Shown here piece by piece: positions 11,844 through 46,780 of a stretch of DNA of 64,000 nt. Each line of letters starts with the position of its first letter. Within the stretch, counting starts at the first letter, position 1. The notes under the pieces are model-generated. The model was given only the letters and a program-made list of their open reading frames with translations. It was not told where the DNA came from and searched no databases. Position numbers and translations under genes: made by a program. The stretch comes from Nitrosopumilus sp. (GTDB lineage Archaea > Thermoproteota > Nitrososphaeria > Nitrososphaerales > Nitrosopumilaceae), in NCBI GenBank assembly GCA_965238275.1, contig OZ250186.1, positions 2,112,001-2,176,000 on the forward strand. The letters are read 5' to 3'.

Positions 11844-12943
11844 TACTGACGCGCAAAAGTTTTTGAGCAGATACCCTAGCCAACCGCAAAGTTTCTAGAT
11901 CAGGCTCCCTTCAGTGAGACATGAACGACACCAAACTGGAAGAACTCGAAAAGGTGTACAAAAAGGAAAAGGACCACAAGGTCCGAGCCAGAATGGTTGT
12001 GGTGCGCATGGTGCGCGTGCGCAACATGACCGTGGAGGAAACTGCTGACATTCAAGGACGTAGCCCAAACTGGGTCCGTAACTGGTTGCGCCGCTTCGAC
12101 GACGGGGGCCTGCAAGGCCTCCGTGATCTTCCACGATGCGGACGGCCCAGAAGGATTCCGCGAGATGTCATCGATGGAATAATTGCAAAGGCATCCTGCT
12201 GTAAAATCACACCCTCGGAGTTGCAGCAGAAGATACGCAAGGACACGGGCGTAAAACTTCACATCACGTACGTCAGGAAAATCATGCACCAGCACAACCT
12301 GTCTCCGAAGGCACCACGAAAGGTCCACGTCAATCGGGCCAACAAGAAGGCCGTGCAGAACTGGAAATATCGCTTCAACAAGCGGGTTTCACGCCTAGAA
12401 AAGGATGGTTTCACCGTATTAATGGAGGACGAGGCAATTTTCATACACGACGTGATAGTCGGCTGCAAATACTGGTCCCCGGTGGGCCGTTCCATAAGCG
12501 TGCCGTATACTGGCAGTCACAAGAGGATCGCAGCGTACGGTTCAATTGCCAAGGACGGCAGGCAGTTCTTCCGGACGTATGAGAAATTTGACGGGCCCAC
12601 GTTTGTCAGATACCTCAAGGATCTGCACAGGCACTTTGGCAAGGTGGTGGTGACCGCAGACAGGGCACCGCAGCACCGCTCAAAACTGGTAAAGGAATTT
12701 CTGCGAAATAACAAGGACGTCAAGATGATCTATTTGCCAAAGGGCTCGCCGTACCTCAACGCGATGGAAGAGTGCTGGCACCAGGGAAAGCGCGTCCTGC
12801 TAGTCTCCGAATATTACAGGACATTCCAAGACATGCACCGGGCAGTTTCGCTGTATTATCGAACCATCAGATTCAAGCTTGACCTTCTCAAATTTACCAG
12901 CCGAAAATATGAGATGCTGTGCAAGGACTTTTGATCGTCAGTA
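11844..12943 (+). mobile_element. IS630-family element (1100 bp)
   Basis: TIRs TACTGACGCGCAAAAGT / TACTGACGATCAAAAGT; TA duplication at 11842-43 and 12944-45. Confidence 0.9.
11921..12934 (+). CDS. IS630 transposase, intact ORF
   Basis: N-terminal HTH, GRPR, MEDEA, ADRAPQH, YLPKGSPYLNAMEECW. Confidence 0.93.
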   Translation: MNDTKLEELEKVYKKEKDHKVRARMVVVRMVRVRNMTVEETADIQGRSPNWVRNWLRRFDDGGLQGLRDLPRCGRPRRIPRDVIDGIIAKASCCKITPSELQQKIRKDTGVKLHITYVRKIMHQHNLSPKAPRKVHVNRANKKAVQNWKYRFNKRVSRLEKDGFTVLMEDEAIFIHDVIVGCKYWSPVGRSISVPYTGSHKRIAAYGSIAKDGRQFFRTYEKFDGPTFVRYLKDLHRHFGKVVVTADRAPQHRSKLVKEFLRNNKDVKMIYLPKGSPYLNAMEECWHQGKRVLLVSEYYRTFQDMHRAVSLYYRTIRFKLDLLKFTSRKYEMLCKDF

Positions 12944-27389: not shown

Positions 27390-28835
27390 CTATAGCGGCG
27401 AGCGAAAGTTCGTGCAAACAGATCTCTCTGTAGCATGTCCTGATGCTCTTTCCGGCGCTCTGTCAGACCTTCCAATATTGTCGTCGTTGCCGGATCCAAG
27501 CCGACCTGTCGAATTGTTCATTCCAGAACCATCCGATCCGTGATCCTCGCGCCTTGTGACGACCTCGACACCTGCAATGGTGCCTCCACGATTCCCGTGG
27601 GCTTGGCCGCCAGTCTCCTCCGTATGGAGACAGTCATTATCCAAAATGTTTTTTGCCGCGTTCTTGTCGGCATGGTGGCACCATCCGCATGAGACGCAGA
27701 CAAATGATTCGCCGTTCCTGGATTTCTTGTCCACTACCCCGCAGGCAGCGCACCTCTGGCTTGTATGTGCGGATTCCACGCGTCTTGAAATTCCGCCTTT
27801 CTTTTTCATCTGCCATTCAAGCTGGATCCTGAACTCGCCCATTCTGGAATAGGCCATCTCGCGGTTCAACCCCGTCTTTGAAGCCGCCCCGCAGGATCGC
27901 CTCATCTTGGTCAAATCCAGGTCTTCCAGGAACAATACGGACAGTCCTTTTGTTATCCGCCTGGCAATGTCGGCCTCGTTGTGTTTTTGCCTGTTTGATA
28001 TCTTTTTCAATTCATGCGTTACCTTGCGGCCGATCTCTTTCCATCTTCTGGAGCCTGCCTGGCATCTTGATCTAAGTGATTTCAGCTGATCAATCCTGTC
28101 GCCGTCATGCCTCTTGCAGCCTCCGGGGACATTGTGCAGTTTTTCGTTCCCATGCTCGTCTGCGACTGCCGCAAGGTGCCTGACTCCAAGATCCAGCCCT
28201 GCCTTGCATCCGCCGCCGCCACCGCCTGTCGCGGGTTCGGGGTCTGGGACTTCTATCTGCAAATGCAGTTTGAATTCGCGATCACCATCCTTGGTCTTAC
28301 GCGTGACCTTGCCCGTGGTGTCAATCATCTGGAATGACACGAGCCTGCCTTCTGGAACCTTCGTGCGTGGCCTTGCTTCCCCGAGTCCGGGCAGAAACAC
28401 GGCTCCACTGTCTCGCAGTTTTGGCTTTGCGCGTGAATTCAGCGAGCGCAGCCTGGTTGTTTTCCTGCCGCGCCTCATCAGGCTGGACGGCTCGGTCCAC
28501 CGATTGTGCCTGTACGTCTTCTTTTTCCCCAGCTTGATCTGCTTCTTGCGCCAGATGCGCTTGTTGTGCTTGAGCCGGTTTGCCTTGCGGAATTTGACTG
28601 CCGCCTGGAAAGCCTGTTTTGAGGCGGCCTCGTGCATGCGGACGCTGCTGGCCAGGTTGAATTCCCTGCGCCATCCTGTTATCAGGTTGTTGATGTCAAA
28701 CTGTGTGATCCCCGGGTGTGCAAGTTTCATCATGATTGTCATGTCGTAAACGATGTCTGTTTCCCGGGAGCATTTCACGATCTTGCGTGACAGTTCCCGG
28801 GATTGTGTTATCTTGATGATTTTGCTGACAATCAT
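27390..28835 (-). CDS. tnpB: TnpB RNA-guided nuclease
   Basis: RuvC-I GLDLG, RuvC-II FLEDL, Zn finger CAACG..CVSCG, RuvC-III HADKNAAKNI. Confidence 0.92.
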   Translation of the reverse strand: MIVSKIIKITQSRELSRKIVKCSRETDIVYDMTIMMKLAHPGITQFDINNLITGWRREFNLASSVRMHEAASKQAFQAAVKFRKANRLKHNKRIWRKKQIKLGKKKTYRHNRWTEPSSLMRRGRKTTRLRSLNSRAKPKLRDSGAVFLPGLGEARPRTKVPEGRLVSFQMIDTTGKVTRKTKDGDREFKLHLQIEVPDPEPATGGGGGGCKAGLDLGVRHLAAVADEHGNEKLHNVPGGCKRHDGDRIDQLKSLRSRCQAGSRRWKEIGRKVTHELKKISNRQKHNEADIARRITKGLSVLFLEDLDLTKMRRSCGAASKTGLNREMAYSRMGEFRIQLEWQMKKKGGISRRVESAHTSQRCAACGVVDKKSRNGESFVCVSCGWCHHADKNAAKNILDNDCLHTEETGGQAHGNRGGTIAGVEVVTRREDHGSDGSGMNNSTGRLGSGNDDNIGRSDRAPERASGHATERSVCTNFRSPL

Positions 28836-28903
28836 ACCTGTAGTTGGGATTTATTTTCTTAAAAAGGATCTCAAAAAATTGCACGAACTTTCGCTTTTCA
28901 CTA
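27393..28903 (-). mobile_element. TIR-bounded TnpB-only element, copy 1 (1511 bp)
   Basis: 25-bp TIRs (21/25 match), TA duplication at 27391-92 and 28904-05; excision restores the host frame SDSSEIPSW. Confidence 0.92.
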
Positions 28904-30213
28904 TAGAATCGGAAGCGTCATCGGACTCGGTGGGGGGAAGGTCTATGACGCCCTCTGTTATCAGGAACTGGATTGCCTCTATGAAGGTGGCGTCATCTAT
29001 TACATCGCCTGCCCACAGTCCTGCATTGCGCTTTACCCAGGACGGGATGCTTACGGGTTCGTCGCTCACGGGTTCGTCGCCTGGAAATATCGTTATTGGA
29101 ACGAGCAGATAATCAGCGGGTCCCTCTGGAACAATATTTTCCTTAGCTTGGCCGTATATCCACACTGCATAGTCGACAGTGCCAGCATCCTCATCTACAG
29201 TCATTTCAAGAGAGTATTGGCCCGAGGTCGTATAGAGAACTCGCACACCTTCATCCTGTGCAAGTGATCTTATTGGCACACCAGAGTCATCCAGCACCAG
29301 AACATCAAACTGAACCTGGTTCAGGAACTCCGTGTCGTCCTCCTTTTTGATAAACTTGATAAGCCACTCCATCTCGCAGCCCTCGGCGGGATCCTCTGGC
29401 CCGTAGGAGACGTGTACCTGGTAGTGGTGGTGTTCGGTTGCCTTTTTGACCACGACTGTTCTTTGAACATCATCATCGCACCACGGCGGCAACAGATCAC
29501 TCCCCGTGGGGACTATGCCCGCAAACGGATTCTCCTGTACATACTGTTCATAGTCACGAAGTTCAAATTCATACTCTGTCGGAGGAATGCCTTCAGACAC
29601 ATGGACAAGTGTTGCAGCCTTAATCGGGAATGGGAAATCATCCACCACCCACACGTTGCTGACATATCCGCCCGTCTTCCAGGATATCCGAACAGTCTTC
29701 CATGTTCCTGCCGGAACAGTGACATCCTCGATCTCTTTTGGACGTATCTGCTCGCCGCCGATGTTTGCAATCTTGCCCCAGGATATATCAGTGAATGCCT
29801 TTGGGCCCTTCTGGCTCTCATCGATATTTGCAGTTGCATATGCAGACAGCCATGACACAGATGAGCCGAATGCACGCCTGTATTTATCCAGTTCAGGACT
29901 GCTGCCTGTCGGCTCAGGGATGAGTTTTCCCAGAGTCATATTTCCCACAATCACCTTGTTGCCGTCACGCACCACAACCTCTGCAAGCAGCTGTGTCTCA
30001 CTGCCGACTGTAACATCCCCCTTTATCCACATCTCAAAACTAAAATCCCTGCACTCCCTGTAGTCAAAATGACACATGGTATAATGAAAATAGTCGCCCT
30101 GCGCTAGTCCCTAGCCGACATACCATTCCCCCTCCTTGTCTACGCCGCCTGACTCGTACTGGGCAAATGCATCAGAAGAGTACGTCGCCAATAAAAGTAC
30201 CGTAATAGACAAG

Positions 30214-34752: not shown

Positions 34753-36198
34753 TTATAGCGGCGAGCGAAAATTCGTGCAAACAGATCTCTCTGTAGCATG
34801 TCCTGATGCTCTTTCCGGCGCTCTGTCAGACCTTCCAATATTGTCGTCGTTGTCGGATCCAAGCCGACCTGTCGAATTGTTCATTCCAGAACCATCCGAT
34901 CCGTGATCCTCGCGCCTTGTGACGACCTCGACACCTGCAATGGTGCCTCCACGATTCCCGTGGGCTTGGCCGCCAGTCTCCTCCGTATGGAGACAGTCAT
35001 TATCCAAAATGTTTTTTGCCGCGTTCTTGTCGGCATGGTGGCACCATCCGCATGAGACGCAGACAAATGATTCGCCGTTCCTGGACTTTTTGTCCACTAC
35101 CCCGCAGGCAGCGCACCTCTGGCTTGTATGTGCGTGTTCCACGCGTCTTGAAATTCCGCCTTTCTTTTTCATCTGCCATTCAAGCTGGATCCTGAACTCG
35201 CCCATTCTGGAATAGGCCATCTCGCGGTTCAACCCCGTCTTTGAAGCAGCCCCGTTGGATCGCCTCATCTTGGTCAAATCCAGATCTTCCAGGAACAATA
35301 CGGACAGTCCTTTTGTTATCCGTCTGGCAATGTCGGCCTCGTTGTGTTTTTGCCTGTTTGATGTCTTTTTCAATTCATGTGCTATCTTGCGCCCGATCTC
35401 TTTCCATCTTCTGGAGCCTGCCTGGCATCTTGATCTAAGTGATTTCAGCTGATCAATCCTGTCGCCGTCATGCCTCTTGCAGCCTCCGGGGACATTGTGC
35501 AGTTTTTCGTTCCCATGCTCGTCTGCGACTGCCGCAAGGTGCCTGACTCCAAGATCTAGCCCTGCCTTGCATCCGCCGCCACCGCCTGTCGCGGGTTCGG
35601 GGTCTGGGACTTCTATCTGCAAATGCAGTTTGAATTCGCGATCACCATCCTTGGTCTTGCGCGTGGCCTTGCCTGTGATATCGATCATCTGGAATGACAC
35701 GAACCTGCCTTCCGGGATCTTTACGCGCGGCCTTACTTCCCCGAATCCGGGCAGAAATACGGCTCCACTGTCTCGCAGTTTTGGCTTTGCGCGTGAATTC
35801 AGCGAGCGCAGCCTGGTTGTTTTCCTGCCGCGCCTCATCAGGCCAGACGGCTCGGTCCACCGATTGTGCTTGTACGTTTTCTTTTTCCCCACCAGCTTGA
35901 TCTGTTTCTTGCGCCAGATGCGCTTGTTGTGCTTGAGCCGGTTTGCCTTGCGGAATTTGACTGCCGCCTGGAAAGCCTGTTTTGAGGCGGCCTCATGCAT
36001 GCGGACGCTGTTGGTCAGGTTGAATTCCCTGCGCCATCCTGTTATCAGGTTGTTGACATCAAACTGCGTGATCCGTGAGTGTGCAAGTTTCATCATGATT
36101 GTCATGTCGTAAATGATGTCTGTTTCCCGGGAGCATTTCACGATCTTGCGTGACAGTTCCCGAGATTGTGTTATCTTGATGATTTTACTGACAATCAT
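34753..36198 (-). CDS. tnpB: TnpB RNA-guided nuclease
   Basis: Near-identical to copy 1; D/E/D catalytic residues intact. Confidence 0.92.
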   Translation of the reverse strand: MIVSKIIKITQSRELSRKIVKCSRETDIIYDMTIMMKLAHSRITQFDVNNLITGWRREFNLTNSVRMHEAASKQAFQAAVKFRKANRLKHNKRIWRKKQIKLVGKKKTYKHNRWTEPSGLMRRGRKTTRLRSLNSRAKPKLRDSGAVFLPGFGEVRPRVKIPEGRFVSFQMIDITGKATRKTKDGDREFKLHLQIEVPDPEPATGGGGGCKAGLDLGVRHLAAVADEHGNEKLHNVPGGCKRHDGDRIDQLKSLRSRCQAGSRRWKEIGRKIAHELKKTSNRQKHNEADIARRITKGLSVLFLEDLDLTKMRRSNGAASKTGLNREMAYSRMGEFRIQLEWQMKKKGGISRRVEHAHTSQRCAACGVVDKKSRNGESFVCVSCGWCHHADKNAAKNILDNDCLHTEETGGQAHGNRGGTIAGVEVVTRREDHGSDGSGMNNSTGRLGSDNDDNIGRSDRAPERASGHATERSVCTNFRSPL

Positions 36199-36252
36199 AC
36201 CTGTGGTTGGGATTTATTTTCTTAAAAAGGATCTCAAAAAATTGCACGAACT

Positions 36253-37863
36253 CCCATGTGTTACGGGCATCCAAACCCGTTGATGTTGTGTGTTGACAAT
36301 GCGTCTGGTCCAGTCCGGTTTGGGTTGGTCGGGCAGTTTTTTAAAGATTTGTGGATCAATTGGGTAATTTTAGGCATGTCCGTGTCCGAACCGGCAGGCA
36401 CTGCGTGCGTATCCAGAAGAATGGTGCACAGCTGCCGCTAGGAATCCCCTCCCCCGTATCCGGAGGAAATGGTAGGCCAAACTCCTACAGTCAATATCAT
36501 TTTCGGCAAGCCGGGGGGACGGAAGGGGGCGTTGAGTCGCCCTCCGCTTGTGCAGGGGCGGCGAAACGCACCCCGGGTTCTCCAGTTTCCCCCAGGACGC
36601 CTAGACCTTGGATTCGGCAATGCGTTTTATTCTCTGGAATTTTCGTCTTACAAGATCCCTGTCCTGGGTCCTGTACTCGGTGCTGTGCTCAAGCATCTCC
36701 CAGACCCATTCGAGCATCTGCCTGGCCACGGCGACCCTTGCCTTCATGGGTCCTATGCGGGTTGCCAGTCTTTGGTAGCGCGCCCCTATCCGGACATCGT
36801 GCTGGACGGCAACTAACGCGGCCTCGACCATGGCGCGGCGCAGCCAGACGGAGCCGCGTTTTGTGATGCCGCCGGTCCTGACGGTCTCCCCGCTGTTGTG
36901 GTGTTTTGGCACCAGGCCGGCGTATGAGGCCATCTTTTCGGCGTCAGCAAACCTGCTGTGGTCGACTATTTCGGCAAGTATGGTTACTGCCGTAATGTAG
37001 CCTATTCCGGGTATGGTCATGATCAGCTGTGCCCTCCTGTCGCTCATTGCAATCCCGGCTACCTTTTTTTCAAATTTTGCCACCTGCTTTAGTACGGTAT
37101 CGATGGTGGCCAGATGCGACTGCACCGCCATGCGGTCAACCTCCCTCAGGGGCACGGCCTGCAGCCACTCGAGTCCAGGTCCCGTAAAGTCCTCCCTTGG
37201 GCTGCTCGTGCGGGTATTTGGCCAGGATCGCGTGGATGCGGTTCTTTGGGGCGGTGGCGTACATCTTCATGCCCAGGCGGGTGCGGGTCAGTTCGCGCAG
37301 GTCCCGCGCGGGCTTGTCGGCCACGAACGACTCCGGGATCATGTCCAGCCTGCACAGGTCTGCCAGCTTTGCCGAGTCTGCCTTGTCGTTTTTGTAGACG
37401 GTTTCGGTTATGATCTTCGTGTTGTGTGGGTGGGCCAGCAGGGTGTTGATGCCGACATCCTCGAGCATGTCGTGCACGACTATCCAGTAGTTGGCCGTGG
37501 ATTCGCAGACGGCCGTAGCCGGCACGTATCCTTCCTTGCGGATCATCTTGACGAATTCGGTTATTCCCCGGACATTATTGTCAAATTCAGCCTGCCTTAG
37601 TATCTTGTTGGTTTTGCCCTTGATGGTTGAAACGCATTTCTTTTTGTGAACGTCTATTCCAATGTAATACGTGCTATCACCTCCTTTGCAGCATATCGGA
37701 CCCGACCAGCGGAAAACTCCCATTCACCGTCAAAGCGGTATTTGACCATCCGCATACCTTGAGTCACTCTTTCGCACGCCATCATAAGTGGCAAGTTCGT
37801 GTCGACTCTCAGGTCCAACAGGGTAAATGCCATGATCACCGTTACAACGGCAACACATGGCGT
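36253..37863 (-). mobile_element. IS110/IS1111-type element
   Basis: CT core on both sides (36251-52, 37864-65); sub-terminal IR CCATGTGTT/AACACATGG; long 3' non-coding region. Confidence 0.88.
36601..37672 (-). pseudogene. IS110 DEDD recombinase, frameshifted, with ACG at the expected start
   Basis: YIGIDVHK, CESTANYW, KNDKADS, IPGIG, YAGLVP...SG; frame change near 37185; GGAGGTGA precedes ACG. Confidence 0.85.
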
Positions 37864-37973
37864 CTTTCGCTTTTCACTATAGTACAGGAACATGGTTTAT
37901 ACAAATAGGATCAACTCCCCCCATACATGGCAGTCGACTGTGATTTCCTGTGCGGTGTCCGGGCAGAACCGGG

Positions 37974-38852
37974 CTATACGCCTGATACTGTCTCGAGTAT
38001 GGAGTTGCACGAGGTTTTGATGAGGCCGGCCTGCTCCTCCAGCAGGCCAGAGTCGGCCCCCGTGTCAAAGGCGGTTCTCAGTACATGGAAGAGATCCCGC
38101 CTCTCATCCAGGGTGCCCTTGATTCTTTCAAAGTTCTGCCTGTTGACATACCCCAGATAAAAATAACAGTCAGTAGGCATGGAGTTTCCTAGGAAGAAAT
38201 CATATTTTGACCGGATGGTCCCAGAAACGCCTGCCCGGACCATGTCAGAGAATCCGATCGTTGATTTGAGCATCCGCTCAAGGAGGGTGGTAGTCGCCCT
38301 CTCCATTCCTATCGTCTGGGTCACAGACGAGATGTGCTCGTTGATGGGATTCTTGGGAAGCAGCCGAAGCGTCTCAAGCATGTGGGAGGGACTTGGTTTC
38401 CGATGGTTCAGGAGACATATCGCGTCTGCCAGGCAGTATGAGGCACATTTTTGCCAGAACGGGGCAAATGCGTCGGATGCTTGGATCCCCTTCATGGTTC
38501 TCTGAATGCAGAACAGCGCCTCGATCAGATTGTTCCGGGCAAGATTGGTAAAGAGTGCCGGCTTTTTTGCCTGGACCCTTGATACAAGCATTCTCAAATC
38601 CCACGACTCGTCCTGGATTATGTGCATCCCGTCATATCCGAGGAGAACCTTTGGGTCATTCCAGGACAGGGAGGCATGGCGGATGACGGCATACGAATCC
38701 CCGTACCGGACCGTCTCATGCCCGGATCTTTCGTCAAAGACAAAGACGTCATACCCGCATGATTCAAAATGGGTGCCGGCGGCCCTGCATCCCCCCAGTC
38801 CGGCCGGAAACGAGTCCAACCCCCTCCCCTCAAGAAGTCTTTTCAGATCCAC
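37974..38852 (-). CDS. Hypothetical protein (possible nucleotidyltransferase-like N-terminus)
   Basis: Long ORF, GLGG...YDVFVFD. Confidence 0.65.
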   Translation of the reverse strand: MDLKRLLEGRGLDSFPAGLGGCRAAGTHFESCGYDVFVFDERSGHETVRYGDSYAVIRHASLSWNDPKVLLGYDGMHIIQDESWDLRMLVSRVQAKKPALFTNLARNNLIEALFCIQRTMKGIQASDAFAPFWQKCASYCLADAICLLNHRKPSPSHMLETLRLLPKNPINEHISSVTQTIGMERATTTLLERMLKSTIGFSDMVRAGVSGTIRSKYDFFLGNSMPTDCYFYLGYVNRQNFERIKGTLDERRDLFHVLRTAFDTGADSGLLEEQAGLIKTSCNSILETVSGV

Positions 38853-44915: not shown

Positions 44916-45230
44916 ACTAACAGTTTGTACAGTATGCTTAAAAATAGATGCCATGGCAGATGGCACCCATACCCCGGAACTGACGCGGATCCGGCATCAC
45001 ATAGCCTGCAGGCCAAACCGCACCATGCCGTAGGACGTATTGGACTCACGGATTCGTGCGATCCGGAGATACGGCGCATGCCAAATCCCTTTATTGTCAT
45101 GGAACCGCACACACACATAGAGACAGTCACATGACCAAGTGCGGGGTGATGAGTAGGTCGACTGAAACGGGATGTGGAGACATGACCTGGGGTATTTGAC
45201 TGCATTAGGTTATGCCGTGTTTGGGTTCTG

Positions 45231-46720
45231 TAGTGAAAAGCGAAAGTTCGTGCAATTTTTTGGATCCCTTTTTAAGAAAACAAATTCTATCCACATACAT
45301 GATTGTCAGCAAACGCGTTACGATAATGCAGTCTCGGGAATTGTCACGCAAGATTGTAAAATGTTCCCTGGAAACAGACGTCGTTTACGACATGACCATA
45401 CTGATGAAACTGGCCCATCCCAAAATGACCCAGTTTGACGTGAACAACCTGATAACTGGCTGGCGCAAAGAATTCAACCTGACCAACAGCGTCCGCATGC
45501 ATGAGGCCGCGTCCAAGCAGGCCCTCCAGTCGGTAATCAAATTTAAGAAATCAAATGTGAAAAAACACGCAAAACGGATCTGGCGCAAGAAGCAGATAAA
45601 GCTCGGCAAGGCCAGAACGTACAGGCACAACAGGTGGACGGATCCGTCCAGCCTGATGAGGCGCGGCAAGAAGACAACCAGGCTGCGTTCGCTGAATTCG
45701 CGCGGAAAGCCAAAACTGCGAGACGACGGCACGGTGTTCCTGCCCGGACTCGGAGGGGTAAGGCCGCGCACGGAGATCCCCGAAGGCAGGTTTGTGTCGT
45801 TCCAGATGATCGACATTACAAACAAGGTCACGCGCAAGACCAATGACGGTGATCGCAGGTTCAAACTGCATTTGCAGGTAGAAGTTCCAGACCCCGAACC
45901 AGCTGCAGGCTGCAAGGCAGGGATCGATCTGGGCGTCAGGCACCTTGCGGCAGTCGCAGACGAGGACGGGAACGAAAAACTGTACAATGTTCCTGGCGGG
46001 TGCAGGCGTCACGACGGCGACAAGATTGACCGGTTGAAGTCACGCCGGTCAAAATGCGTGCGCGGTTCGCGCAAATGGGGAAAGGTCGGCCGCATGATAC
46101 AACGTGAATTGAAAAAGATATCCGACAGGCAGAAACACAACGAAACGGGCATTGCCAGGCGGATAACAAAAGGCCTGTCTGCGGTATTTTTGGAAGACAT
46201 GGATTTGACCAGGATGAGGAGATCCAACGGAAAGGCACCAAAGACCGGGTTGAACCGCGAGATGGCATACTCTAGGATGGGGGAGTTTCGGAGCCAGGTT
46301 GAATGGCAGATGAAAAAGAAAGGCGGAGTTTCAAAACGCGTGGAATACAAGAATACCAGCCAGAGGTGTGCTGTTTGCGGAACTGTGGACAAAAAGTCCA
46401 GAAACGGCGAATCCTTTGCCTGCACTGCATGCGGGTGGTACCACCACGCCGACAAGAACGCGGCAAAAAATATTTTGGATAATGACTGCCTCCACATGGG
46501 GGCTGGCGGCCAAGCCCACAAAAACAGTGGAGGCACCATTGCAGGTGTCAAGGTCGTCACAAGGCGCGAGGATCACGGTTCAGGCAGTCCTGCAAGGGAC
46601 AGCTTGACAAGTCGGCTTGGACCCGACAACGATGATTTTGGAAGATCTGACAGAGCGCCGGAAAGGGCATCAGGGCATGCTACGGAGAAATCTGTTTGCA
46701 CAAACTTTCGCTCGCCGCTA
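45231..46720 (+). mobile_element. TIR-bounded TnpB-only element, copy 3 (1490 bp, diverged)
   Basis: TAGTGAAAAGCGAAAGTTCGTGCAA ... TTGCACAAACTTTCGCTCGCCGCTA; TG duplication at 45229-30 and 46721-22. Confidence 0.9.
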
Positions 46721-46780
46721 TGGTACCAGTCACACTGCAGAGCCAGAACCCAGACGGCCCGCATAAGGAACCGCCAATAG
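45299..46780 (+). CDS. tnpB: TnpB RNA-guided nuclease (reads through the right end into the flank)
   Basis: GIDLG, FLEDM, CAVCG..CTACG, HADKNAAKNI; TTTTTAAG box about 25 bp upstream. Confidence 0.92.
   Translation: MIVSKRVTIMQSRELSRKIVKCSLETDVVYDMTILMKLAHPKMTQFDVNNLITGWRKEFNLTNSVRMHEAASKQALQSVIKFKKSNVKKHAKRIWRKKQIKLGKARTYRHNRWTDPSSLMRRGKKTTRLRSLNSRGKPKLRDDGTVFLPGLGGVRPRTEIPEGRFVSFQMIDITNKVTRKTNDGDRRFKLHLQVEVPDPEPAAGCKAGIDLGVRHLAAVADEDGNEKLYNVPGGCRRHDGDKIDRLKSRRSKCVRGSRKWGKVGRMIQRELKKISDRQKHNETGIARRITKGLSAVFLEDMDLTRMRRSNGKAPKTGLNREMAYSRMGEFRSQVEWQMKKKGGVSKRVEYKNTSQRCAVCGTVDKKSRNGESFACTACGWYHHADKNAAKNILDNDCLHMGAGGQAHKNSGGTIAGVKVVTRREDHGSGSPARDSLTSRLGPDNDDFGRSDRAPERASGHATEKSVCTNFRSPLWYQSHCRARTQTARIRNRQ

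Follow-up and report, generated by a model that had tools for sequence, protein, structure and literature searches.

The insertion sequences (ISs) IS4321 and IS5075 are said to target the terminal inverted repeats (TIRs) of another transposon, as reportedly described by Partridge and Hall in 2003. We examined a similar arrangement in a stretch of 64,000 nucleotides from the archaeon Nitrosopumilus sp. (assembly GCA_965238275.1, contig OZ250186.1, positions 2,112,001 to 2,176,000; 'the window' throughout), where an IS110-family element of the IS1111 type lies within a TIR of a transposon that carries tnpB. Like IS4321 and IS5075, this element has a DEDD recombinase and subterminal inverted repeats and, within the TIR of another transposon, takes a single position and orientation. 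It differs from them in having an archaeal host, in its target (a 28-bp TIR of the IS630 type, found on TnpB-only elements and IS630 copies, instead of a 38-bp Tn21-family repeat), in the placement of its predicted guide RNA upstream of the recombinase gene, and in the occurrence of several guide variants within one genome.

The closest RNA-guided precedents are the seekRNA elements of the IS1111 group, ISEc11, ISKpn4 and ISPa11 (Siddiquee et al. 2024, PMC11187229), and IS621 with its bridge RNA (Durrant et al. 2024, PMC11208160; Hiraizumi et al. 2024, PMC11208158). TnpB within TIR-bounded elements of the IS630 type has also been reported earlier (PMC13565253). Within the literature collection and search listings covered, no IS110 or IS1111 element aimed at the TIRs of IS630 or TnpB elements was returned. 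An initial annotation of the window had proposed that an RNA-guided element with a 2-nt core had been aimed at the multicopy end of a TnpB transposon and had inserted exactly into its TIR. Our analysis supports this proposal in its main point, and the reading that we regard as very likely correct is as follows: the insert is a defective IS110-family IS of the IS1111 type, guided to an IS630-type TIR by a bridge/seek RNA encoded in its own leader.

The boundaries of the insertion could be fixed in silico by comparison with uninterrupted sites. The unsplit 28-mer of the host TIR, TTGCACGAACTTTCGCTTTTCACTATAG, has 41 matches with up to six mismatches in the genome (searched as a single contig of 2.217 Mb), ten of them perfect. 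The rRNA genes of this genome are archaeal. At the locus in question its two halves are separated by a block that, on the + strand, begins with CCCATGTGTT at 36253 and finishes with AACACATGGCGT at 37863 (Table 1). A CT dinucleotide is found on each flank of the IS, compared with a single CT at intact sites, and the TA at 37880-37881 is the target duplication of the host TnpB element. The 13-mer across the insertion point, CACGAACTTTCGC, is present intact 22 times in the genome, against 0.07 expected for a random 13-mer, and all 22 lie in TIRs of TnpB elements. When 100 further genomes from this taxonomic family were searched, none contained a 15-mer version of the target. The uninterrupted TIR copies and the sequence itself thus bear out the precise placement of an IS110/IS1111 element inside the TIR, and the genome counts of the 28-mer and the 13-mer confirm the earlier statement that the same target core recurs in other TIRs. 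The span originally assigned to the element, 36241-37881, identified the right locus and includes the split TIR and the TA; the element proper runs from 36253 to 37863.

Because the TIR halves are continuous at 41 sites that have no IS, they form one repeat, separate from the insert. The opposite assignment, in which the TIR-like flanks belong to a longer IS and nothing has been split, would account for the similarity of the flanks in all copies, but those uninterrupted TIRs already refute it; moreover, similarity between IS copies stops at CCCATG... and ...GGCGT, and the flanks follow the host family. We give this assignment practically no weight.

The insert carries an IS110-family recombinase gene spread over two frames. 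Pfam searches matched PF01548 (E 4.8e-19) on open reading frame (ORF) 37723..37136 and PF02371 (E 1.5e-28) on ORF 37155..36601. The two ORFs contain the motifs YIGIDVHK and HHNSGETVRTGGITKRGS, corresponding to the first aspartate (IGID motif) and the conserved C-terminal serine, and in an intact relative (locus L044, genome G006) the same motifs align to YIGIDTAK and YESGSSVRG...KAG of the IS621 transposase, chain 8wt6_A. The product of L044 matches that chain at E 4e-20 and scores 248.8 bits on NF033542, 'IS110 family RNA-guided transposase' (cut-off 140). The subterminal inverted repeats described in the initial annotation are present, with CCATGTGTT at 36254-36262 and AACACATGG at 37852-37860; they are perfect over 9 bp and match at 11 of 13 positions if extended. 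The terminal extensions beyond them are ACG on the left (5 bp counting one copy of the core) and G on the right (3 bp with the core). These extensions are shorter than the 7 bp on the left and 3 bp on the right typical of IS1111 elements, whose repeats usually measure 11-13 bp, against 9 perfect bp here (PMC11187229).

A leader of about 190 nt upstream of the recombinase gene holds all four candidate guide segments. Positions in the leader take window 37863, the first left-end base, as nt 1 and proceed in the direction of the recombinase gene. The 5' target guide copies CACGAA-CT of the TIR as read on the + strand of the window and would pair with the opposite strand, with 8 of 9 nt matching; together with the 3' target guide it specifies CACGAA-CT-TTCGC. 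The nucleotides at the handshake position (37767-37768) directly follow the 3' target guide, and the UU after the AUGGGAG of the 3' donor guide equals the first two nucleotides of the right flank. A further word, ATGGCGT, lies just 5' of the 3' target guide and was considered as a donor guide; it does not covary with the left end in relatives and corresponds to the 3' strand of the apical stem.

Table 1. Features of the split TIR, the inserted element and its predicted guide RNA (window positions; nt, leader positions)
Feature	Position	Strand	Basis or remark
Host TnpB-only element	34756..37879	-	28-bp IS630-type TIRs; TA duplication (34754-34755, 37880-37881); tnpB ORF 36198..34753
Inner TIR half TTGCACGAA (36242-36250) and CT core (36251-36252)	36242..36252	+	Continuous with 37864-37879 in unsplit TIR copies
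IS110-family (IS1111-like) insertion sequence, 1611 bp	36253..37863	-	Boundaries from intact TIR copies and other IS copies
Second CT core (37864-37865), outer TIR half TTCGCTTTTCACTA (37866-37879) and TA (37880-37881)	37864..37881	+	
Predicted bridge/seek RNA: outer stem around target stem-loop and donor stem-loop	37695..37819	-	RNAalifold, 12 leaders
5' target guide ACACGAACU	37794..37802 (nt 62-70)	-	Reverse complement of core and right flank
3' target guide GCGAAAG	37769-37775 (nt 89-95)	-	Copy of left flank and core; complement of CT-TTCGC
5' donor guide AUGGUC	37744..37749 (nt 115-120)	-	Approximate reverse complement of left-end nt 2-7
3' donor guide AUGGGAG	37715..37723 including UU (nt 141-147)	-	Last 5 nt of right end and core
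N-terminal recombinase ORF (DEDD/RuvC-like domain)	37136..37723	-	PF01548
C-terminal recombinase ORF (Transposase_20 domain, NSGE serine motif), out of frame	36601..37155	-	PF02371
Subterminal inverted repeat, left end, CCATGTGTT in recombinase sense	37852..37860		Partner 36254-36262; kept in relatives
Downstream non-coding region, 348 nt	36253..36600	-	GC-rich hairpin, TTTAAAAAA box, then hairpin and subterminal repeat

The leaders share a conserved predicted fold in which the target guides form both sides of an internal loop in the first stem-loop and the donor guides do likewise in the second. We tested this fold without three pairs that RNAalifold drew within the donor guides. At the remaining 30 pairs, 93.8% were paired and compensatory changes were found at 10 pairs; neither this pairing nor the covariation was attained in any of 500 shuffles, and when partners were displaced by 1-3 columns the paired fraction fell to 29-46%. 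The stems include conserved G:U pairs, and in the three cases examined by eye (c502, L045 and L046) the mismatches between guide and DNA place a guide G where the DNA has A, corresponding to rG:dT wobbles. The G:U pairs and the G-for-A mismatches both fit an RNA transcribed in the recombinase sense.

In the mechanism that we favor, the element would move as a recombinase bound to the bridge/seek RNA made from its own leader, with two stem-loops that each present an internal loop. In the target loop, ACACGAACU and GCGAAAG would pair with opposite strands of CACGAA-CT-TTCGC in the middle of the 28-bp TIR, and in the donor loop AUGGUC and AUGGGAG would pair with the element's own joined ends, ...ATGGCGT-CT-CCCATG..., presumably in a circular intermediate. 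Exchange at the common CT would then give an insertion in one orientation with a CT on both sides and no further duplication. Sub-lineages in the same genome bear altered guides that match other variants of the IS630-type TIR.

Besides the window copy, a blastn search of the genome with the insert identified three complete or nearly complete copies, together with four fragments of the left end and one of the right. The copy at 827 kb (827315-828604, or 827297-828616 by wider limits) is 99.9% identical to that in the window and sits at the same TIR position. The 502-kb copy (502654-504356, 93% identical) sits at the equivalent position, CCTGCACAAA-CT / CT-TTTGCGTGTCAGTTAG, in the gene-proximal TIR of another TnpB element (protein identity 44.5%), and the 1289-kb copy (1289009-1289808) lies in the 3' TIR of an IS630 remnant. 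The left-end fragments adjoin the outer halves of IS630-type TIRs: CT-TTTGCGCGTCGCTATAG for the fragment ending at 1920768, CT-TTCGTTTTTCACCATAG for that ending at 1926102, and CT-TCGGCGCGTCGCTAAAG for those at 1089473 and 1091319, which represent one duplicated segment. The initial annotation had named insertion of other copies at unrelated sequences as the observation that would speak against targeting; instead, seven of the eight insertion events in the genome are in IS630-type TIRs, with the left end toward the outer TIR half in all seven. The right-end fragment at 1754009 is the one event outside identified TIRs, and its flank was matched to no element.

Contigs of four DNA runs contained joints that skip 1624 nt, which were considered as an empty allele of the window locus. 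They carry TTGTACGAA or TTGCACGGA between the two sides and derive from other TnpB copies with intact TIRs. Another joint in these contigs, skipping 321 nt, is the deletion variant known from the 827-kb copy.

The distribution of copies bears on whether the TIRs were targeted at all, or whether the TIR copies stem from one chance insertion that was then spread by duplication or by composite transposition of TnpB element and IS together. The near-identity of the window and 827-kb copies, which share the same 2-nt frameshift, is what such spread would leave behind, and because both retain the outer TIR half a composite would in principle be movable. Their two hosts, however, share just 95% of nucleotides (over 400 nt) and 89% of TnpB amino acids, and the remaining copies occupy the TnpB element of 44.5% protein identity, the 3' TIR of an IS630 and 5' TIR halves of IS630-like elements. 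Spread from a single event is already contradicted by these different host families, as well as by guides that vary in step with the TIR variant, and we consider it extremely improbable.

This variation of the guides is visible by alignment of the genomic copies. The 7-nt word of the leader shifts with the left flank, from GCGAAAG in the window to GCAAAAG in the 502-kb copy and TCAAAAG in the 1289-kb copy, with GCAAAAG fitting TTTGC and TCAAAAG fitting TTTGA. In the left-end fragment 1920595-1920768, ACAAAAACU and GCAAAAG fit CAAAAA-CT-TTTGC, a 13-mer that occurs twice in the genome, both times in the 5' TIR of an IS630 element. One of these is in the window (near 11865), where it matches the target loop of that fragment perfectly. 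Guides of the window type have 22 intact targets (in TIRs of either kind carried by the main TnpB family) and those of the 1289-kb type have one, the 3' TIR of an IS630 at 1873010; perfect targets for guides of the 502-kb and 1089-kb types number zero in the genome. Every predicted 13-mer that exists in the genome falls in an IS630-type TIR.

We extended the comparison to related elements by searching for the leader in 100 genomes of the same taxonomic family. Relatives were found in 12 genomes; 20 relative loci were taken, and right ends could be placed for 11 of them by similarity to the right end in the window. The resulting covariation set comprises 28 loci from six archaeal genomes, with duplicate combinations removed. 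The 3' target guide and the locus's own left flank form 17 distinct combinations across the 28 loci, 10 of them perfect at the five non-core positions, and match on average at 4.41 of 5 non-core nucleotides compared to 1.47 for foreign pairings, a value reached in none of 100,000 shuffles. For the 5' target guide, 15 loci supply 11 distinct combinations with the right flank, which agree on average at 3.9 of 7 positions compared to 2.77, a value reached in 216 of 100,000 shuffles. The donor guides follow the ends of the element in the same manner. The 5' donor guides ATAGTG, ATAGTA, ATGGCA and AGCTTC track the left ends ACACT, ATACT, ATGCC and AAGCT, and the 3' donor guide becomes ATGGAAG where the right end reads ...CATGGA (the copies in genome G100). 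At 17 of the 28 loci, the pair of nucleotides that follows the 3' target guide is identical to left-end nucleotides 1-2 (classes AC, AT, AA and CC), as described for the handshake positions of IS621 (PMC11208158); in the window copy the handshake nucleotides are AG and the left end begins with AC. The proposal of an RNA-guided element with a 2-nt core aimed at a multicopy transposon end is therefore upheld by leader guides that match the TIR on both sides of the CT and that covary with other targets elsewhere.

The same covariation speaks to the question of whether the site might be recognized by protein-DNA contacts or by DNA structure, with the matches in the leader being incidental. The target is partly palindromic (CGAA-CT-TTCG), and a preprint (10.64898/2026.03.19.712850) reportedly describes a structural component in target recognition by an IS110 element. 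Guides and flanks nevertheless covary at unrelated, non-palindromic targets, such as TTACC-AG-TTCC, TAAGT-AG-TTCC and GTAAG-AG, the matching words are placed in the internal loops of a conserved fold, and RNA guidance has been demonstrated experimentally for the family (PMC11208160, PMC11187229). We regard recognition through protein or structure as very unlikely.

Three loci among the relatives display additional arrangements. L048 and L049 (G065:C1:1677815-1681200) are two full related IS copies in a head-to-tail arrangement with 57 nt between them, and each occupies a separate copy of the target ...CGGTAAGT-AG-TTCCGCC.... In L063, from the same genome, both target guides are changed, and the 3' guide matches its flank. 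In L045 (G100:C1:137524-139059), the left flank and the 3' target guide agree at 7 of 7 positions, but the 5' guide does not match the right flank, which resembles the target of another sub-lineage of the same genome; these mixed flanks may reflect recombination between copies.

RNA guidance to the TIR remains our preferred reading, and several observations weigh against it. The first nucleotide of the 5' target guide in the window is mismatched (A versus G), and the 5' guide agrees poorly with the right flank at L044 (where the register is shifted by one base), L045, L046 and L047. The 3' guide matches only 3 of 5 positions of the left flank at L044 and L051; elsewhere it is partial at the 1089/1091 fragments (3 of 5) and at L046, L058, L061 and the 1926-kb fragment (4 of 5). 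The loci are kin and the permutation figures carry no phylogenetic correction, so those figures overstate independence. An Rfam scan of 36100-38000 returned four matches at chance level (E 3.4-9.7) and no bridge-RNA family, and a search of RNA sequencing runs listed none containing the sequence. The 2-nt deletion shared by the window and 827-kb copies weakens, without removing, the independence of those two insertions. Finally, all four of the full or near-full copies are broken, which implies no current activity without help in trans.

Compared with the two described RNA-guided systems, the predicted RNA combines features of both. As in the IS1111 seekRNA elements, there are subterminal inverted repeats, two RNA segments complementary to the two target strands, a top-strand complement located 5' of the bottom-strand complement, and natural reprogramming among relatives (PMC11187229). 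The RNA lies upstream of the recombinase gene, unlike the typical IS1111 arrangement with its RNA in the downstream non-coding region, although a few IS1111 members are described as having an upstream non-coding region or both regions (PMC11187229). In the element studied here, the 348-nt downstream region contains no target-matching word of 6 nt or longer. As in IS621, the RNA comes from the left end and is predicted to form two stem-loops with internal loops, the target loop first and the donor loop second, with a 5' guide of about 9 nt ending in CU, a 3' guide ending in AG and the core within each pairing (PMC11208160, PMC11208158). Handshake positions follow the 3' guide (PMC11208158), rG:dT wobbles are tolerated and the recombinases are related. 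The 3' target guide, at 7 nt, exceeds the 4 nt of IS621, and the subterminal repeats are longer as well (PMC11208160, PMC11208158).

The order of the guides also differs from IS621, whose 5' guide is a copy of the left flank and whose coding strand carries CT as its core (PMC11208160, PMC11208158). Here both junctions read AG on the coding strand; the right flank of that strand is the complement of the 5' guide and its left flank is copied by the 3' guide, giving the mirror order. We considered this order as a novel feature and dropped it, as IS1111-type seekRNAs have that order (PMC11187229).

All full or near-full copies in this genome have lost an intact gene, each in its own way or in common with another. 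Compared with the relatives and the copies at 502 and 1289 kb, the window copy has a 2-nt deletion near 37188/37189 that shifts the frame; the 827-kb copy has the same deletion and is also missing most of the non-coding sequence downstream of the gene. In the 502-kb copy, about 90 nt have been inserted near the start of the ORF, alongside other indels, and the 1289-kb copy has a large internal deletion. The lineage is probably now inactive in this genome, with no intact recombinase gene. The frameshift shared by the window and 827-kb copies implies either that a dead copy was moved in trans or that gene conversion occurred.

Decay of the window copy had been deduced originally from both a frameshift and an ACG start. 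The frameshift is a real 2-nt deletion; the ACG may not be a sign of decay. ACG is found at 37672..37670, where relatives carry ATG, with GGAGGTGA, which resembles a ribosome-binding site, just 5' of it. It is common to all five copies or fragments of the genome that reach this position, and an in-frame ATG occurs 17 codons upstream (37721-37723), inside the donor-loop guide, in a frame that is open in the intact relative too. Because ACG is present in all copies and an in-frame ATG lies upstream, it is not clear evidence of decay; it was probably already present while the lineage was still mobile.

The only full-length open IS110-family frame in the genome (1923482-1924600, 371 aa) is located between two left-end fragments of the studied element. 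It was considered as a helper in trans, an unlikely role given that it is only 30% identical.

The host of the insertion is one of three copies of the TnpB-only element in the window (27390-28906, 34756-37879 and 45228-46723). The element measures about 1.5 kb and its sole gene encodes a protein of 481 aa, identified as TnpB by its Pfam matches to OrfB_IS605 and a Cas12f1-like TNB domain and scoring 121.6 bits on NF040570. About 24 loci in the genome encode a TnpB at least 72% identical to that of the host. The tnpB frame extends through the distal TIR, and its stop is a TAA or TAG made together with the target duplication. IS630-type transposases are represented in the genome by 34 DDE_3 matches. 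One IS630 element, with a 338-aa ORF that has a DDE_3 domain, flanking TA and related TIRs (TACTGACGCGCAAAAGTTTTTGAG / TACTGACGATCAAAAGTCCTTGCAC), is in the window at 11844-12943; no autonomous IS630 with TIRs nearly identical to those of the TnpB element was identified in the genome. With related TIRs and a TA duplication and no DDE_3 gene of its own, the TnpB element is best described as a non-autonomous element with IS630-type ends.

Since the target is both multicopy and dispensable, it constitutes a safe landing site, and the best-supported function is a selfish use of such a site, with guides that drift as the TIR variants do. A different purpose would be served if insertions had been selected for disabling TnpB and IS630 elements, as an anti-transposon function. 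The outer 16 bp of the TIR are parted by 1.6 kb from the inner 9 bp and the duplicated CT core, a cut that probably blocks recognition of the host by its transposase, and the guides track several TIR variants. Only two TIRs of the main TnpB family are occupied, however, compared to the 22 target 13-mers that are left intact, all IS copies are dead, and members of the family generally target dispensable repeats (PMC11208160). An anti-transposon role is therefore unlikely in our judgment. Immobilization of the individual host carrying the selfishly placed IS is a reasonable inference, at a low occupancy.

The downstream non-coding region of the element holds two conserved features. Approximately 30 nt past the recombinase stop is a GC-rich nested hairpin (36525-36574, minus strand; GGGGCG..GCCGCCCC..GGGCGGC..CGCCCC) that is present in seven of eight aligned relatives from several genera and is deleted in the 827-kb copy. 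Closer to the right end, and 74 nt inside it, is a TTTAAAAAA box (36327-36335, minus strand) present in all eight aligned sequences, from five genomes. This box could be an archaeal TATA box, the promoter that reads over the circle junction into the leader. In an integrated copy it would read outward, which in the window is the sense of tnpB.

All four of the insertions associated with TnpB are in the tnpB-proximal TIR. Given the fixed orientation and the outward TATA-like box, an insertion in that TIR would transcribe into tnpB. A more speculative scenario, which we put forward tentatively and hold to be possible rather than probable, is that an IS lineage within one genome diversified its target loops in pursuit of diverging IS630-type TIRs (two TnpB-only families and both ends of IS630) in a parasite-on-parasite co-evolution, with the outward box at the right end permitting hitch-hiking or activation. 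If true, the relation of the IS to its host could be one of hitch-hiking or activation and not of immobilization.

The known mechanism of the family is unchanged by these observations, which provide a natural illustration of guide reprogramming. They constitute a clean natural record of that process for bridge/seek RNAs, in which guide variants are each found beside the matching TIR variant in one genome, and have a practical value for annotation, as the leader by itself predicts the insertion site. The element is also an example of subterminal repeats and an IS1111-type guide order combined with an RNA that nonetheless lies upstream. The targeting of TIRs by IS110/IS1111 elements is extended to archaea and to transposons of the IS630 type and those carrying TnpB, and two RNA-guided mobile systems, TnpB with its omega-RNA and an IS110 element with its bridge RNA, meet at one locus.

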